Source of the DNA: Escherichia coli
GTDB lineage: Bacteria > Pseudomonadota > Gammaproteobacteria > Enterobacterales > Enterobacteriaceae
Direction: 5' to 3' (one strand)
DNA: 64,000 bases
NCBI RefSeq assembly: GCF_002854065.1
Contig: NZ_CP024147.1
Shown here: in pieces, positions 6,851 to 47,438 of the stretch
Layout: each line of letters opens with the position of its first letter
How positions within the stretch are numbered: the stretch's first letter is position 1
Notes under the pieces: model-generated
The model's input: only the letters and a program-made list of their open reading frames with translations
What the model was told of the DNA's origin: nothing
Database searches by the model: none
Position numbers and translations under genes: made by a program

Positions 6851-8055
<1,205 letters not shown>

Positions 8056-8146
8056 CACGTTTTTCACTCCTGCTCCCTTCGAGGTATGCCGCGTGTCGTA
8101 TAAAACTTTCTTTAAGGCTTAGAGTCAAGCATCAAAAAGCGGTCAA

Positions 8147-8174
8147 ATTATACGGTGCGCCCCCGTGATTTCAA
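8147..8174 (-). promoter_or_regulatory. atp operon promoter (sigma70-like: -35 TTGAAA, 16-bp spacer, -10 TATAAT)
   Basis: Minus strand reads TTGAAATCACGGGGGCGCACCGTATAAT about 100 bp upstream of atpI. Confidence 0.7.
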
Positions 8175-8539
8175 ACAATAAGTAGCCAAAAGGTGAATAA
8201 ATGTTTAAATATTTTTCCAGTGCATACAATTGCGACTTTTCTGCTAACCCTGTTCGATCATGAAAAACTGTAAATAACGCGTAAACACTGGTGATAAAGC
8301 GTGCTTCAGATCACATATTGCGCATGTTCGCGCACAGCATATTTATTTACTTGGCAAATGATGCCTTTGCAAGTTTATGATATTTCAGTCTAAAAACAGA
8401 TACTGTTTTAATAAATGACATTTACACAACAAAAACCACCAATTGACATTTTTAATAATGTTTTAACAGCCAATGATGGTTCTTAGCGCCGATTTTTAGC
8501 AGACTGATATTTTCACTAATGACTTATTTTCTGCTTACC

Positions 8540-8585
8540 AAAAAAAGCCACGTTATCTTGTTGATGCAAAAGAGTGAACGTGGCG
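8540..8585 (-). terminator. Probable intrinsic terminator downstream of rsmG (end of mnmG-rsmG unit)
   Basis: On the minus strand: 8-bp stem GCCACGTT/AACGTGGC with a 23-nt loop, followed by a T7 run. Confidence 0.5.
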
Positions 8586-8671
8586 TTAAATGTAACCAGT
8601 TATATCAGTAGAAAACCTGGTTGTTGTTAACAGTCTAACCGGTCAATTTTTTATGATTTTTTTGATAAAAA

Positions 8672-9295
8672 TTAAATTTTATTTGCTTTAATCACCACCA
8701 GATGACGTTCGCCATCCAGGGCTGGAACCTGAAGTTTAACCACTGATTCGACCTGATATTCTTCGGGCAACAAAGCGATTTCATCTTCCGGCATTTGCCC
8801 TTTCAGCGCGTAGAAACGGCCTTGCTCACCAAGAAGATGGTGGCACCAGCTCACCATATCGTTCAGAGAGGCAAAAGCGCGGCTAATTACGCCATCAAAT
8901 GGCGGCTCTGAAGGAAACTCTTCTACCCTGCTCTGTACTGGCTCAATATTCTCCAGTTTAAGCTCATGTTGCACCTGACGAAGGAAACGCACGCGTTTAC
9001 CAAGGCTATCCAACAGAGTGAAATGGGCTTCAGGACGCACGATAGAGAGTGGAATGCCAGGCAGTCCAGGACCGGTGCCGACATCGATAAACCGTTCACC
9101 TTGCAGATACGGTGCCACCACAATGCTATCGAGAATATGGCGTACCAGCATCTCATTAGGATCGCGGACCGAAGTCAGGTTGTACGCTTTGTTCCATTTA
9201 TGCAGCATATTCACGTAGGCAATAAGCTGGTTTTTCTGGTGATCGGTAAGCGAAATACCTGCGTCTTTCAGCAGTAAGGAGAGTTTGTTGAGCAC
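8672..9295 (-). CDS. rsmG: 16S rRNA m7G527 methyltransferase RsmG (GidB)
   Basis: 207-aa ORF with SAM-binding motif [10 protein letters not shown]; directly downstream of mnmG. Confidence 0.95.
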
Positions 9296-9358
9296 GGTGA
9301 TTACCTGTTCTTGATGCGTTGCCTGGTAAGCGGGTGCTTACCAGGCATTTTTAATGCG

Positions 9359-11248
9359 TTATGCGCTACGACGCAGCATACCCTGTTTTTTCAGCCACAC
9401 CAGCAGAATGGAGATGGCCGCAGGCGTGACGCCAGAAATACGTGAAGCCTGGCCGATAGAGGCCGGTTTGTGATCGTTAAGTTTGGCGATCACTTCGTTA
9501 GAAAGACCGGATACCTGGCGGTAATCCAGTGTCGCGGGTAGCAAGGTGTTCTCGTTACGCAGCTGCTTTTCGATCTCATCTTGCTGGCGCGCGATATAAC
9601 CTTCGTATTTAACCTGAATCTCAACCTGTTCCGCCGCCTGTTCGTCTGTCAACGCAGGGGCAAACGGCGTCAGCGTGGTTAATTTTTCATAAGTCATTTC
9701 CGGACGACGCAGCAGATCTTCACCACTGACTTCACGGGAAAGCGGCGCAGTCAGGTGAGCATTCACTTCGGCTGCAGCTTCCGCCGACGGGGTTACCCAG
9801 GTCGATTTCAGACGCTGACGCTCACGCTCGATATTCTCAAGTTTCTCGTTAAAGCGCGCCCAACGTTCGTCATCCACCAGGCCCAGTTCACGACCGATTT
9901 CAGTCAAACGCAGATCCGCATTATCTTCGCGCAGCATCAGACGATATTCTGCGCGCGAGGTAAACATACGATACGGTTCTTTGGTTCCTAAAGTGCACAG
10001 GTCATCAACCAGTACGCCGAGATAGGCCTGAGAACGCGCCGGAGCCCAACCTTCTTTGTCAGCAGACAGACGGGCAGCGTTAAGACCGGCCAGCAAACCT
10101 TGCGCAGCGGCTTCTTCGTAACCGGTAGTGCCGTTAATCTGACCAGCAAAGAACAGCCCCTGGATAAACTTGCTCTCCAGCGTCGGTTTCAGGTCGCGAG
10201 GATCGAAGAAGTCATACTCAATGGCATAACCCGGACGCACGATCTTCGCGTTTTCCATCCCCTGCATAGAGCGGACGATTTGCATCTGCACATCGAACGG
10301 CAGGCTGGTGGAGATACCGTTCGGATAAATTTCGTTAGAGGTCAGCCCTTCCGGTTCAAGGAAGATCTGATGCTGATTTCTGTCGGCGAAGCGCATGACT
10401 TTGTCTTCGATCGACGGGCAGTAGCGTGGGCCGACACCTTCGATCACCCCTGCGTACATTGGGCTACGATCGAGGTTACTGCGGATCACATCATGGGTTT
10501 TCTCGTTGGTATGGGTGATATAACACGGCACCTGCTGTGGATGCTGGGACGCATTGCCCATAAAAGAGAATACCGGCATTGGGTTATCACCATGCTGTTG
10601 CGCAAGCACGCTAAAGTCGATGGTTCGAGCATCAATACGCGGTGGTGTCCCGGTTTTCAGACGACCAACGCGTAGCGGAAGTTCACGCAAACGGCGAGAA
10701 AGCGGAATGGACGGCGGATCACCAGCACGGCCACCGCTGTAGTTATCCAGACCGATATGAATTTTACCGTCGAGGAACGTCCCAACGGTGAGCACGACGG
10801 CTTTGGCACGGAACTTCAGTCCCATTTGGGTAACAGCACCGACCACACGATCGTTTTCGACAATAAGATCTTCAACCGCCTGCTGGAAGATCATCAGATT
10901 CGGTTGGTTCTCCAGCGCCGTACGTACCGCCTGACGGTAGAGCACACGATCCGCCTGAGCTCGGGTAGCACGAACTGCCGGTCCCTTGCTTGCGTTTAGT
11001 ATCCTAAACTGGATACCCGCCTGATCGATCGCTTTCGCCATCAGACCGCCAAGTGCATCCACTTCTTTTACCAGATGTCCCTTCCCAATACCGCCGATCG
11101 CCGGGTTGCAGCTCATCTGCCCCAGAGTGTCGATATTGTGTGTCAAAAGCAGAGTCTGTTGACCCATACGCGCCGCGGCCATCGCGGCCTCGGTGCCTGC
11201 ATGACCCCCGCCAATGATGATGACGTCAAAAGGATCCGGATAAAACAT
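9359..11248 (-). CDS. mnmG: tRNA uridine 5-carboxymethylaminomethyl modification enzyme MnmG (GidA)
   Basis: 629-aa ORF with N-terminal FAD-binding motif [12 protein letters not shown]; adjacent to oriC. Confidence 0.97.
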
Positions 11249-22918: not shown

Positions 22919-23848
22919 ATGCAAAACGCAGGCAGCCTCGTTGTTCTTGGCAGCATTAATGCTGACCATATCCTTAATCTTCACTCTTTTCCTACTCCAG
23001 GCGAAACCGTAACCGGTAACCACTATCAAGTCGCATTTGGCGGCAAAGGCGCAAATCAGGCAGTGGCAGCAGGACGTAGCGGCGCGAATATCGCGTTTAT
23101 TGCCTGCACTGGCGATGACAGTATTGGCGAGAGTGTTCGCCAGCAGCTCGCCACTGATAACATCGATATTTCTCCGGTCAGCGTGATCAAAGGCGAATCA
23201 ACAGGTGTAGCGCTGATTTTTGTTAATGGTGAAGGCGAGAATGTCATTGGTATTCATGCTGGCGCGAATGCAGCCCTTTCCCCTGCGCTGGTGGACGCGC
23301 AACGTGAGCGTATTGCTAACGCATCAGCATTATTAATGCAGTTGGAATCACCACTCGAAAGTGTGATGGCAGCGGCGAAAATCGCCCATCAAAATAAGAC
23401 TATCGTTGCGCTTAATCCGGCTCCGGCTCGCGAACTTCCTGACGAACTGCTGGCACTGGTGGACATTATTACGCCAAACGAAACGGAAGCAGAAAAGCTC
23501 ACCGGTATTCGTGTTGAAAATGATGAAGATGCAGCGAAGGCGGCGCAGGTGCTACATGAGAAAGGTATCCGTACTGTACTGATTACTTTAGGAAGTCGTG
23601 GTGTATGGGCTAGCGTGAATGGCGAAGGTCAGCGTGTTCCTGGATTCCGGGTGCAGGCTGTCGATACCATTGCAGCCGGAGATACCTTTAACGGCGCGTT
23701 AATCACGGCGTTGCTGGAAGAAAAACCGTTGCCAGAGGCTATTCGTTTTGCTCATGCCGCCGCTGCGATTGCCGTAACGCGTAAAGGCGCACAACCTTCC
23801 GTACCGTGGCGTGAAGAGATCGACGCATTTTTAGACAGACAGAGGTGA
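22919..23848 (+). CDS. rbsK: Ribokinase
   Basis: PfkB-family sugar kinase motifs (GGKGANQA, DTIAAGDTFNGA); start placed at MQNAGSLVVLG (309 aa). Confidence 0.93.
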   Translation: MQNAGSLVVLGSINADHILNLHSFPTPGETVTGNHYQVAFGGKGANQAVAAGRSGANIAFIACTGDDSIGESVRQQLATDNIDISPVSVIKGESTGVALIFVNGEGENVIGIHAGANAALSPALVDAQRERIANASALLMQLESPLESVMAAAKIAHQNKTIVALNPAPARELPDELLALVDIITPNETEAEKLTGIRVENDEDAAKAAQVLHEKGIRTVLITLGSRGVWASVNGEGQRVPGFRVQAVDTIAAGDTFNGALITALLEEKPLPEAIRFAHAAAAIAVTRKGAQPSVPWREEIDAFLDRQR

Positions 23849-23851
23849 CGC

Positions 23852-24844
23852 TTGGCTACAATGAAAGATGTTGCCCGCCTGGCGGGCGTTTCTACCTCAA
23901 CAGTTTCTCACGTTATCAATAAAGATCGCTTCGTCAGTGAAGCGATTACCGCCAAAGTTGAAGCGGCGATTAAAGAACTCAATTACGCGCCATCAGCTCT
24001 GGCGCGTAGCCTCAAACTCAATCAAACACATACCATTGGCATGTTGATCACTGCCAGTACTAATCCTTTCTATTCAGAACTGGTGCGCGGCGTTGAACGC
24101 AGCTGCTTCGAACGCGGTTATAGTCTTGTCCTTTGCAATACCGAAGGCGATGAACAGCGGATGAATCGCAATCTGGAAACGCTGATGCAAAAACGCGTTG
24201 ATGGCTTGCTGTTACTGTGCACCGAAACGCATCAGCCTTCGCGTGAAATCATGCAGCGTTATCCGACAGTGCCTACCGTGATGATGGACTGGGCTCCGTT
24301 CGATGGCGACAGCGATCTTATTCAGGATAACTCGTTGCTGGGCGGAGACTTAGCAACGCAATATCTGATCGATAAAGGTCATACCCGTATCGCCTGTATT
24401 ACCGGCCCGCTGGATAAAACTCCGGCGCGCCTGCGGTTGGAAGGTTATCGGGCGGCGATGAAACGTGCGGGTCTCAACATTCCTGATGGCTATGAAGTCA
24501 CTGGTGATTTTGAATTTAACGGCGGGTTTGACGCTATGCGCCAACTGCTATCACATCCGCTGCGTCCTCAGGCCGTCTTTACCGGAAATGACGCTATGGC
24601 TGTTGGCGTTTACCAGGCGTTATATCAGGCAGAGTTACAGGTTCCGCAGGATATCGCGGTGATTGGCTATGACGATATCGAACTGGCAAGCTTTATGACG
24701 CCACCATTAACCACTATCCATCAACCAAAAGATGAACTGGGGGAGCTGGCGATTGATGTACTCATCCATCGGATAATCCAGCCGACCCTTCAGCAACAAC
24801 GATTACAACTTACTCCGATTCTGATGGAACGTGGTTCGGCTTAG
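23852..24844 (+). CDS. rbsR: LacI-family ribose operon repressor
   Basis: 330-aa ORF with N-terminal HTH ([24 protein letters not shown]) and periplasmic-binding-protein-like domain. Confidence 0.95.
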
Positions 24845-45416: not shown

Positions 45417-47438
45417 ATGCGTCTAAACCCCGGCCAACAACAAGCTGTCGAATTCGTTACCGGCCCCTGCCTGGTGCTGGCGGGCGCGGGTTCCGGTAAA
45501 ACTCGTGTGATCACCAATAAAATCGCCCATCTGATCCGCGGTTGCGGTTATCAGGCGCGACATATCGCGGCGGTGACCTTTACCAATAAGGCGGCGCGCG
45601 AGATGAAAGAGCGTGTCGGGCAGACGCTGGGTCGCAAAGAGGCGCGCGGGCTGATGATCTCCACTTTTCACACGCTGGGGTTGGATATCATCAAACGCGA
45701 GTATGCGGCGCTTGGGATGAAAGCGAACTTCTCGTTGTTTGACGATACCGATCAGCTTGCTTTGCTTAAAGAGTTGACCGAGGGGCTGATTGAAGATGAC
45801 AAAGTTCTCCTGCAACAACTGATTTCGACCATCTCTAACTGGAAGAATGATCTCAAAACACCGTCCCAGGCGGCAGCAAGTGCGATTGGCGAGCGGGACC
45901 GTATTTTTGCCCATTGTTATGGGCTGTATGATGCACACCTGAAAGCCTGTAACGTTCTCGACTTCGATGATCTGATTTTATTGCCGACGTTGCTGCTGCA
46001 ACGCAATGAAGAAGTCCGCGAGCGCTGGCAGAACAAAATTCGCTATCTGCTGGTGGATGAGTATCAGGACACCAACACCAGCCAGTATGAGCTGGTGAAA
46101 CTGCTGGTGGGCAGCCGCGCGCGCTTTACCGTGGTGGGCGATGACGACCAGTCGATCTACTCCTGGCGCGGCGCACGTCCACAAAACCTGGTGCTGCTGA
46201 GTCAGGATTTTCCGGCGCTGAAGGTGATTAAGCTTGAGCAGAACTACCGCTCTTCCGGACGTATTTTGAAAGCGGCGAACATCCTGATCGCCAATAATCC
46301 GCACGTCTTTGAAAAGCGTCTGTTCTCCGAACTGGGTTACGGCACAGAGCTAAAAGTTTTAAGCGCGAATAACGAGGAACATGAAGCCGAGCGCGTTACT
46401 GGCGAGCTGATCGCCCATCACTTCGTCAATAAAACGCAGTACAAAGATTACGCCATTCTTTATCGCGGTAACCATCAGTCGCGGGTGTTTGAAAAATTCC
46501 TGATGCAAAACCGCATCCCGTACAAAATTTCTGGTGGTACGTCGTTTTTCTCTCGTCCTGAAATCAAGGACTTGCTGGCTTATCTGCGCGTGCTGACTAA
46601 CCCGGACGATGACAGCGCATTTCTGCGTATCGTTAACACGCCGAAGCGAGAGATTGGCCCGGCGACGCTGAAAAAGTTGGGTGAATGGGCGATGACGCGC
46701 AATAAAAGCATGTTTACCGCCAGCTTTGATATGGGCCTGAGTCAGACGCTTAGCGGACGTGGTTATGAAGCATTGACCCGCTTCACTCACTGGTTGGCAG
46801 AAATCCAGCGCCTGGCGGAGCGGGAGCCGATTGCTGCGGTGCGTGATCTGATCCATGGCATGGATTATGAATCCTGGCTGTACGAAACATCGCCCAGCCC
46901 GAAAGCAGCCGAAATGCGCATGAAGAACGTCAACCAACTGTTTAGCTGGATGACGGAGATGCTGGAAGGCAGCGAACTGGATGAGCCGATGACGCTCACC
47001 CAGGTGGTGACGCGCTTTACTTTGCGCGACATGATGGAGCGTGGTGAGAGTGAAGAAGAGCTGGATCAGGTGCAACTGATGACTCTCCACGCGTCGAAAG
47101 GGCTGGAGTTTCCTTATGTCTACATGGTCGGTATGGAAGAAGGGTTTTTGCCGCACCAGAGCAGTATCGATGAAGATAATATCGATGAGGAGCGGCGGCT
47201 GGCCTATGTCGGCATTACCCGCGCCCAGAAGGAATTGACCTTTACGCTGTGTAAAGAACGCCGTCAGTACGGCGAACTGGTGCGCCCGGAGCCGAGCCGC
47301 TTTTTGCTGGAGCTGCCGCAGGATGATCTGATTTGGGAACAGGAGCGCAAAGTGGTCAGCGCCGAAGAACGGATGCAGAAAGGGCAAAGCCATCTGGCGA
47401 ATCTGAAAGCGATGATGGCGGCAAAACGAGGGAAATAA
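45417..47438 (+). CDS. rep: ATP-dependent DNA helicase Rep (SF1 UvrD-like)
   Basis: Walker A GAGSGKT; start placed at [29 protein letters not shown] (673 aa). Confidence 0.95.

Follow-up and report, generated by a model that had tools for sequence, protein, structure and literature searches.

The rsmG (gidB) and atpI genes of Escherichia coli are separated by a long, A/T-rich spacer that precedes the atpIBEFHAGDC (atp) operon. Here, we consider what this spacer is, working from a window of 64,000 nucleotides (the whole stretch of DNA that was analysed; assembly GCF_002854065.1, contig NZ_CP024147.1), of which positions 8000-8750 are 100% identical to the chromosome of E. coli ATCC 8739. All positions are those of the window and are converted by adding 3914385 for NC_000913.3 or 3912408 for U00096.2, the latter anchored on the published ArcA box. 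The coding sequence of rsmG occupies 8672-9295 on the minus strand, and atpI starts at ATG 8055 according to RefSeq or at GTG 8067 in a list of open reading frames (ORFs), such that the spacer measures 616 bp (8056-8671) or 604 bp. RefSeq places no feature between the two genes in either ATCC 8739 or K-12 MG1655. The original prediction, made from the letters alone, had singled out this region as an AT-rich stretch of about 600 bp and as the largest non-coding, non-rRNA interval in the window, and both descriptions hold: the window has a G+C content (GC) of 0.519, which falls to 0.354 in 8068-8671 and to 0.336 in 8226-8671, and by RefSeq annotation the next widest gaps are 480 bp (upstream of rrnC), 378 bp (oriC, about 2.7 kb from the spacer) and 352 bp. 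Of 5,426 complete E. coli genomes, 5,424 carry the spacer as a single copy, in every case flanked by these two genes and never on a plasmid; in only three of the 5,424 is there no contiguous match over 80% or more of its query sequence. A repeated or mobile element (repetitive extragenic palindrome, REP; enterobacterial repetitive intergenic consensus, ERIC; or insertion sequence, IS) was ruled out by this one place per genome, and a search for tandem and dispersed repeats returned only short, chance-level matches and a terminator stem.

We consider it likely that the rsmG-atpI spacer is a composite regulatory region and not a gene, comprising the terminator of rsmG and an extended upstream control region of the atp promoter. 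Its parts have each been described before, the promoter from the 1980s on, a CRP site in 2011, an ArcA site in 2013, and a promoter island with H-NS binding in reports from 2013. What we could not find described in the literature is the near-absolute conservation of the length of the spacer and of the distances between its sites. The features are collected in Table 1.

Table 1. Features of the rsmG-atpI spacer, and identity of its segments to E. coli in distant genera (window positions; species counts refer to a 62-species alignment).
Feature	Position	Strand	Sequence or description	Basis or conservation
5' untranslated region (UTR) of atp mRNA	8056-8140	minus	from predicted start at about 8140, 7 nt past the -10, to atpI ATG 8055 (alternative GTG 8067)	
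Sigma-70 promoter of atpIBEFHAGDC	8147-8174	minus	-35 TTGAAA 8174-8169, 16-bp spacer, -10 TATAAT 8152-8147	
Near-invariant promoter-proximal block	8175-8225	minus	about -35 to -85	conserved in alignment
FNR-like 14-mer	8178-8165		TTGTTTGAAATCAC, overlaps the -35	motif match, 43/62 species
Two ArcA-box-like 18-mers	8180-8197, 8191-8208	plus		matrix matches of at least 9 bits, 62/62 and 52/62 species
DnaA-box-like 9-mer	8200-8192		TTATTCACC, 8/9 positions	motif match, 57/62 species
Fis-like 15-mer	8217-8203		GAAAAATATTTAAAC, centre about -70	motif match, 45/62 species
Spacer, CRP box to proximal block	8226-8299		short conserved words at 8263-8286 and 8235-8241	substitutes freely, constant length
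CRP box	8300-8315		CGTGCTTCAGATCACA on plus strand, TGTGATCTGAAGCACG on atp strand; contains GATC	centre 8307.5, i.e., -167.5 from predicted start
Fast-evolving fixed-length spacer, CRP box to ArcA cluster	8316-8399			parsimony counts, alignment
Distal operator cluster for phosphorylated ArcA (ArcA-P)	8400-8470	minus	published box CTGTTAAAACATTATTAA 8469-8452; second box TGGTTTTTGTTGTGTAAA 8438-8421; ATGTCAA between	
Conserved block C	8488-8513		TGAAAATATCAG.CTGCTAAAAATC on atp strand	near-invariant columns in alignment
Predicted intrinsic terminator of rsmG	8540-8587	minus	8-bp G+C-rich stem, inner helix, U7	
Conserved A/T block at or just past rsmG stop	8645-8675		includes FNR-like TTAATTTTTATCAA 8675-8662	FNR-like motif with at most 2 mismatches in 49/62 species
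Promoter island 3920739_440 (U00096.2), atpI(-)/rsmG(-)	8331-8770			published, reported H-NS-bound
Identity, promoter and 5' UTR	8056-8225			0.88
Identity	8226-8330			0.64
Identity	8331-8420			0.51
Identity	8421-8520			0.67
Identity	8521-8600			0.54
Identity	8601-8671			0.49
Identity, 4-fold degenerate sites of rsmG and atpI				0.54

Conservation and fixed spacing

An alignment across the Enterobacteriaceae, which the original prediction had proposed as a check, reveals invariant boxes at fixed distances in 62 species. A scan for RsmG in one genome per species gave 80 loci; spacer length, from the rsmG stop to the atpI ATG, was measured in the 58 Enterobacteriaceae loci also containing atpI and in four Erwiniaceae, and the MAFFT alignment of 62 sequences comprised 696 columns, 48 of them with any gap. 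The best 120 AtpI homologues were from Enterobacteriaceae only, and the comparison stops short of Yersiniaceae and beyond. Within this range the spacer is 612-621 bp long in 57 of the 58 Enterobacteriaceae loci and 597 bp in the remaining one, with a GC of 0.34-0.39, while the four Erwiniaceae spacers (711-816 bp) are 100-200 bp longer, the difference lying in the distal part. Near-invariant columns fall into islands: the promoter with its -35 to -85 block, the CRP box and its flanks (TGTGATCT...GCACGCTTT), the region of the ArcA box (TGTTAAA..TTATTA.AAATGTCAA...GGTTTTT.TTGTGTA) and block C. These are exactly the published CRP and ArcA boxes, plus block C and the proximal block.

The distances between the islands are likewise conserved. 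From the CRP box to the -35 there are 141 bp in all 62 aligned species; an alignment-free regular expression recovered the same figure in 56 of 57 loci (140 in one), and the four Erwiniaceae have 141, 141, 140, and 141 bp. Between the ArcA box and the CRP box there are 154 bp in 56 of the 62 species, 153 in five, and 155 in one. The gap from block C to the ArcA box is 43-46 bp throughout the set, and that from the rsmG stop to block C is 157-161 bp. Substitutions and gaps were counted by Fitch parsimony on a neighbour-joining tree: over the whole spacer, the minimum was 4618 substitutions, and gap-state changes numbered 47. Between the CRP box and the -35 there were 753 substitutions and no indel, with 532 substitutions and again no indel in 8293-8226, and the fastest segment of all, 8420-8331, had accumulated 967 substitutions (10.7 per column) with a single indel. 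By comparison, segments of the same alignment that tolerate indels show a ratio of about 10:1, namely the 5' UTR (158:16) and the rsmG 3' end (171:19). Given that substitutions accumulate at roughly the silent-site rate with almost no indels, the DNA between the boxes appears not to be allowed to change its length.

One might argue instead that the spacer is a neutral leftover whose constant length reflects a low rate of indel mutation and not selection. Outside the boxes, its identity to E. coli in distant genera (0.49-0.54) is indeed what would be expected of such DNA, 4-fold degenerate sites being at 0.54. However, the spacer holds many A and T runs that are prone to slippage; the adjacent 5' UTR and rsmG 3' end show roughly one indel for every 10 substitutions, but the intervening spacers show none for 753 and one for 967; and the Erwiniaceae differ by 100-200 bp distally yet keep the 141-bp module. 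We regard neutrality as highly improbable.

Promoter, CRP box and ArcA cluster

The original prediction had read a near-consensus sigma-70 promoter in the proximal part of the spacer, and this stands. Its hexamers match the consensus at 11 of 12 positions, a quality of match that random sequences of equal length and composition reach in 2.75% of cases. Both hexamers are invariant or nearly so across the 62 species. No second promoter-like site with at least 9 of 12 positions was found by consensus scan on either strand of 7900-9450. A mapping from 1983 reportedly put the transcription start 73 nt upstream of the GTG first assigned to uncI, which fits position 8140. The start-site table of Kim 2012 has no entry matching the locus. 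Downstream of the start, the 5' UTR has undergone only 1.8 substitutions per column, and the 5' UTR and atpI start form the sole part with a consensus RNA fold (RNAalifold, -17.6 kcal/mol, z -2.5). As a separate observation, the part of the Term-seq list of Adams et al. (2021) drawn on here includes a very abundant 3' end, not called Rho-dependent, at 8002 on the minus strand (NC_000913.3 3922387). This end lies 53 nt inside the atpI ORF and, if transcription begins near 8140, implies a plentiful 5' fragment of the atp message of about 139 nt. Cleavage by RNase E within atpI is said to have been described in older reports.

The near-invariant block upstream of the -35 contains a DnaA-box-like sequence among its motif matches, and it is here that a role of the spacer in chromosome biology may be weighed, whether as an origin-proximal DnaA or SeqA site or as an insulator between oriC-linked mnmG-rsmG transcription and atp, in either case without regulating atp. 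The proximity of oriC and the conservation of TTATTCACC are in keeping with such an element, as is the presence of parAB between gidB and atpI in some other Gammaproteobacteria. Yet there is a single DnaA-like box, where about 0.5 one-mismatch boxes are expected by chance in 616 bp, and only two GATC sites, one of them inside the CRP box; moreover, the published binding data concern CRP, ArcA and H-NS, and a reporter fragment responds to crp. An oriC element is thus a very unlikely account of the spacer.

Upstream of this block lies the CRP box. The site CGTGCTTCAGATCACA was listed for the atpIBEFHAGDC/gidB spacer by genomic systematic evolution of ligands by exponential enrichment (SELEX)-chip, and an atpI-lacZ fusion, built with primers spanning about 8057-8574, had lower activity in a crp mutant (Shimada et al., 2011). 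The 16-mer of the SELEX-chip table is identical to window 8300-8315. On the atp strand, TGTGATCTGAAGCACG has 8 of the 10 core positions of a TGTGA-N6-TCACA-like palindrome and occurs with at most two mismatches in all 62 species, TGTGA and CACGCTTT being invariant. At -167.5 from the predicted start, its centre has neither class I nor class II geometry (-61.5 to about -103.5, or -41.5), and hexamer inspection and a consensus scan found no conserved alternative promoter at a class I or class II distance from the box. The best candidate for a second CRP-dependent promoter, TTTACG-17-CATGAT, was rejected, as it agrees with the consensus at 8 of 12 positions, lies off-phase, and shows weak conservation. 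CRP-activated promoters of class I, and multi-site ones such as acsP2 and malK, nevertheless provide a useful comparison. The atp region shares with them a TGTGA-N6-xCACx box, SELEX binding in vitro, and a crp-dependent reporter, and the centre of its box is roughly in class I phase (-61.5 minus 10 x 10.5 = -166.5). It differs in that the box would be out of reach of the alpha C-terminal domain unless the intervening DNA were bent, in that no second CRP site was found in the spacer, and in that the distance stays the same to the base pair in two families.

Further upstream lies the ArcA cluster. Park et al. (2013) reported an ArcA peak in this region at window 8387 by chromatin immunoprecipitation (ChIP)-chip and at 8418 by ChIP-seq, with a box, ctgttaaaacattattaa, of 13 bits that corresponds to 8469-8452 on the minus strand. 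With a weight matrix built from 114 boxes of their Table S3, the atpI box being left out, this site in E. coli scores 13.2 bits, above the 11.1 that marks the 5th percentile of the training set, and the aligned box reaches at least 9 bits in 54 of the 62 species, with a median of 15.9 bits. The spacer of E. coli contains 10 matrix matches of at least 7 bits, versus 2.6 +/- 1.6 in shuffles. Across species, shuffles yield 1.1 matches of at least 9 bits where the real spacers have a median of 6, and these fall at conserved positions. Two copies each of the words TGTTTTAA and TGACATTT are arranged as a mirror series around the centre of the ChIP-seq peak (8404-8411 and 8416-8423; 8444-8451 and 8459-8466), and the boxes score on both strands because TGTTTTAACA (8460-8469) reads TGTTAAAACA on the opposite strand. 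In 41 of the 62 species there is a further ArcA-like box at 8572-8589, but not in E. coli, whose terminator stem fills those columns. Ravcheev et al. (2007) mention, as unpublished, candidate sites for ArcA and for Fnr that precede atp and are conserved among Enterobacteriaceae, and they also cite raised atp expression in arcA and fnr mutants. The cluster resembles the multi-repeat ArcA-P operators of sdhC, cydA, and icdA (Park et al., 2013) in its 18-bp box, composed of two TGTTA-type repeats spaced by 11 bp, its neighbouring elements that look like additional repeats, its in vivo ChIP peak, its A/T-rich setting, and its reported H-NS co-occupancy. In contrast to these operators, the main atp cluster is placed 260-330 bp upstream of the start and not over the promoter, the ChIP signal is weak, and the effect on expression is disputed. 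Block C, the next conserved island, gave no convincing match to the FNR, CRP, IHF, Cra, DnaA, or NarL consensus in consensus scans. A candidate ArgR site at atpI was set aside, since its low-occupancy ChIP-chip signal failed to reappear when the authors of the source paper used ChIP-exo.

Two-thirds of the spacer, on the distal side, make up a listed "promoter island" in the sense of Shavkunov, Panyukov, and Ozoline, a class of sequence marked by an exceptional density of starts predicted with PlatProm: island 3920739_440 is one of 78 in Table 1 of Panyukov and Ozoline (2013) and is reported to be bound by H-NS in two data sets. This listing, together with a GC of 0.34, invites the view that the region is generic A/T-rich DNA that silently traps RNA polymerase and H-NS without site-specific function. 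Such islands are, however, described as tied to horizontally acquired genes, whereas the spacer belongs to the core genome (5,424 of 5,426 E. coli) and can be aligned base for base in 62 species. Its conservation is position-specific, with discrete invariant boxes at fixed distances; a simple promoter scan found one site against 2.0 in shuffles and hence no enrichment of consensus promoters; and A/T-richness alone needs no constant length. A generic island is accordingly an unlikely description of the spacer as a whole, though we rate it above the other alternatives discussed here. The original prediction had assigned no function to the remaining 350 bp or so beyond promoter and terminator, a statement overtaken by the published CRP box, ArcA box, H-NS binding, and promoter island that all lie there.

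The predicted rsmG terminator, and transcripts in the region

Downstream of rsmG, the hairpin with a T7 run that the original prediction had placed at 8540-8585 is borne out as a predicted Rho-independent terminator. Its stem pairs GCCACGTT (8584-8577) with AACGTGGC (8554-8547) and is followed by T7 (8546-8540); the fold has -21.4 kcal/mol (z = -4.0), and a perfect 8-bp stem with at least T6 occurs in 0.05% of random sequences. A simple terminator scan missed the hairpin because its loop exceeds the 8-nt limit of the scan. As in other Rho-independent terminators, a G+C-rich stem leads into U7, here about 87 nt past the rsmG stop codon; it differs from them in a 22-nt loop region that needs an inner helix and in a stem that is not conserved beyond Escherichia and Citrobacter amalonaticus. 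The stem is present in E. coli, E. whittamii, and C. amalonaticus and, weakened, in E. albertii. Most other genera are without an equivalent, several of them keeping GCTTTTTTTGTTAA, and the columns of the stem hold TTTAAC, GTTAC, or GTTAAC words in other genera. From the sequences compared, the hairpin reads as a lineage-specific solution laid over conserved A/T words. Among the 3' ends listed by Adams et al. (2021), in the part drawn on here, none falls between 8002 and 9352, the U-tract of this terminator included; the expression of rsmG may be too weak to register.

The original prediction had also raised the possibility of an unannotated small RNA or of extra regulatory sites in the spacer. 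The second of these is supported by the CRP and ArcA sites and the conserved islands, and we turn here to the first, in which the 350 bp would encode a small RNA, or the promoter of an antisense RNA, independent of the atp and rsmG messages. There are observations that would fit. Short extracellular RNAs (exo-RNAs) of E. coli MG1655, among the dominant ones, have 5' ends at 8542/8543 on the minus strand, which the authors attribute to the promoter island; the region as an island has many predicted start points; an RNA antisense to rsmG does exist; and a consensus TTGACA stands on the plus strand at 8443-8448. Other findings speak against it. The exo-RNA ends are 5' and not 3' ends, map within the U-tract of the terminator, and have low counts (53-145 reads, three data sets), and such RNAs are best read as decay or read-through fragments. 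The TTGACA has no usable -10 and lies inside the ArcA cluster, and the promoter scan described above found no second site. No Rfam match was obtained, a permissive threshold giving only two chance eukaryotic matches, and RNAalifold (15 diverse sequences, 120-column windows against column shuffles) returned 0.0 kcal/mol on both strands of 8671-8321. The earlier remark that no conserved structure could be seen is thus correct for RNA, but not for the layout of the DNA, which is strongly conserved. No ORF keeps its start and stop across the family, and the two 30-codon plus-strand ORFs seen in E. coli survive intact in 6 and 15 of the 62 species. Term-seq, a check that the original prediction had called for over 8068-8671, lists no 3' end inside the spacer in the part drawn on here. 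No small RNA is named at this locus in the literature searched, and the marks of one (its own promoter and terminator, a conserved sequence or structure, detectable ends) were not found. We therefore hold an independent RNA to be quite improbable.

The antisense RNA mentioned above merits a word of its own. In the mnmG-rsmG spacer, a plus-strand terminator at 9320-9353 (12-bp stem, -29.7 kcal/mol, z -4.8, T5) coincides with a 3' end at 9352/9353 among those listed by Term-seq, and the two together imply that an RNA antisense to rsmG exists; its start could lie in the rsmG-atpI spacer. The T-run at 9320-9353 is confined to Escherichia loci, and most other genera have a REP-like hairpin there. 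Elsewhere in the window, the ATCC 8739 annotation gives rbsR as a pseudogene with an internal stop and a PemK/MazF-family toxin gene adjoining ppiC as frameshifted (23842-24834 and 45633-46081).

A probable upstream control region of the atp promoter

Returning to the composite regulatory region that we favor, its parts may be assembled as follows. The rsmG transcript would end at the hairpin and U7 (8587-8540), the solution used in Escherichia, and the remaining 400 bp or so would serve as the upstream control region of the strong sigma-70 promoter of atp (8174-8147, start at about 8140). Binding of CRP and of ArcA and the crp-dependent reporter are published data, and on this footing cAMP-CRP would bind its box at -167.5 and raise atp transcription, presumably through bent or looped DNA, being too distant for direct contact with RNA polymerase. 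Phosphorylated ArcA may occupy the 11-bp-phased direct repeats at about -260 to -330, and possibly the weaker repeats beside the -35, with H-NS probably covering the A/T-rich distal part. The -35 to -85 block, with its Fis-like, ArcA-like, and DnaA-like motifs, probably holds a protein or an intrinsic bend that links the upstream proteins to RNA polymerase. Considering that the distances are constant in some 60 species while the DNA between the boxes has been rewritten, the proteins most likely act as one three-dimensional assembly, bent, looped, or wrapped, in which both distance and helical face would matter. Occupancy of the proximal block and of block C by proteins, the looping or wrapping itself, and the sign and size of any ArcA effect are what we infer beyond these data.

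The upstream activating regions of rrn P1 promoters, with Fis sites at -71 and beyond and an UP element, offer a precedent of a kind. As at rrnB P1, a very strong and growth-rate-controlled promoter is preceded at atp by a long, A/T-rich, conserved upstream region with a Fis-like 15-mer at about -70. Unlike there, Fis at atp is only a motif match, and the stretch from -59 to -38 fits the UP-element consensus poorly.

Several points weigh against a fixed upstream assembly. For CRP, -167.5 lies beyond the range of the usual direct contact with RNA polymerase, and the effect of crp on the reporter is not tied to this box by any footprint or point mutation. For ArcA, the best score in E. coli (13.6 bits) is reached in 11% of shuffled spacers, such that sequence alone would not prove the site; the ChIP signal is modest, at about 3.2-3.3; and older lacZ work cited by Ravcheev et al. 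(2007) found atp expression to be independent of ArcA and Fnr. The motifs of the proximal block overlap one another inside a block that is invariant anyway and are indistinguishable on that evidence. The comparator for indels is purely internal, consisting of segments of the same alignment, and the periodicity of AA/TT peaks at 8.5, 9.75, and 11.75 bp, with no clear helical repeat of 10.5 bp. Finally, the spacer tolerates large insertions. It is widely used as a neutral landing pad, with viable engineered insertions of 7 kb, and strain UMNF18 (locus L084, 1866-3418), one of the three genomes in which the contiguous match is missing, naturally carries an IS91-family transposase and a hypothetical gene at about 8348, between the CRP box and the ArcA cluster. 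Spacer geometry is therefore not essential for viability.

With these points in mind, we put forward a bolder version tentatively, as a possibility that we do not yet expect to hold in full. The whole 616-bp spacer may be a molecular ruler, holding CRP, ArcA-P, a factor at block C, proteins at -35 to -85, and H-NS in one nucleoprotein structure of fixed geometry. Selection would then have purged essentially all indels from the spacer throughout the history of the Enterobacteriaceae, and from the 141-bp CRP-to-promoter module since before the Erwiniaceae split, with CRP activating from -167.5 via a conserved bend or loop. If true, this would be an arrangement not described for the atp promoter.

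The atp operon is among the most highly expressed in E. coli, yet the reference annotation treats the 600 bp upstream of it as empty. Taken together, the published genome-wide data and the 62-species alignment show a structured control region whose length appears to be under unusually strict selection, and insertions at the landing pad separate the conserved CRP, ArcA, and other sites from the promoter. Should the fixed geometry reflect a real assembly of several proteins, the spacer would be a tractable case of long-range, distance-critical activation at a housekeeping promoter, and a warning on the use of the locus as a neutral landing pad.

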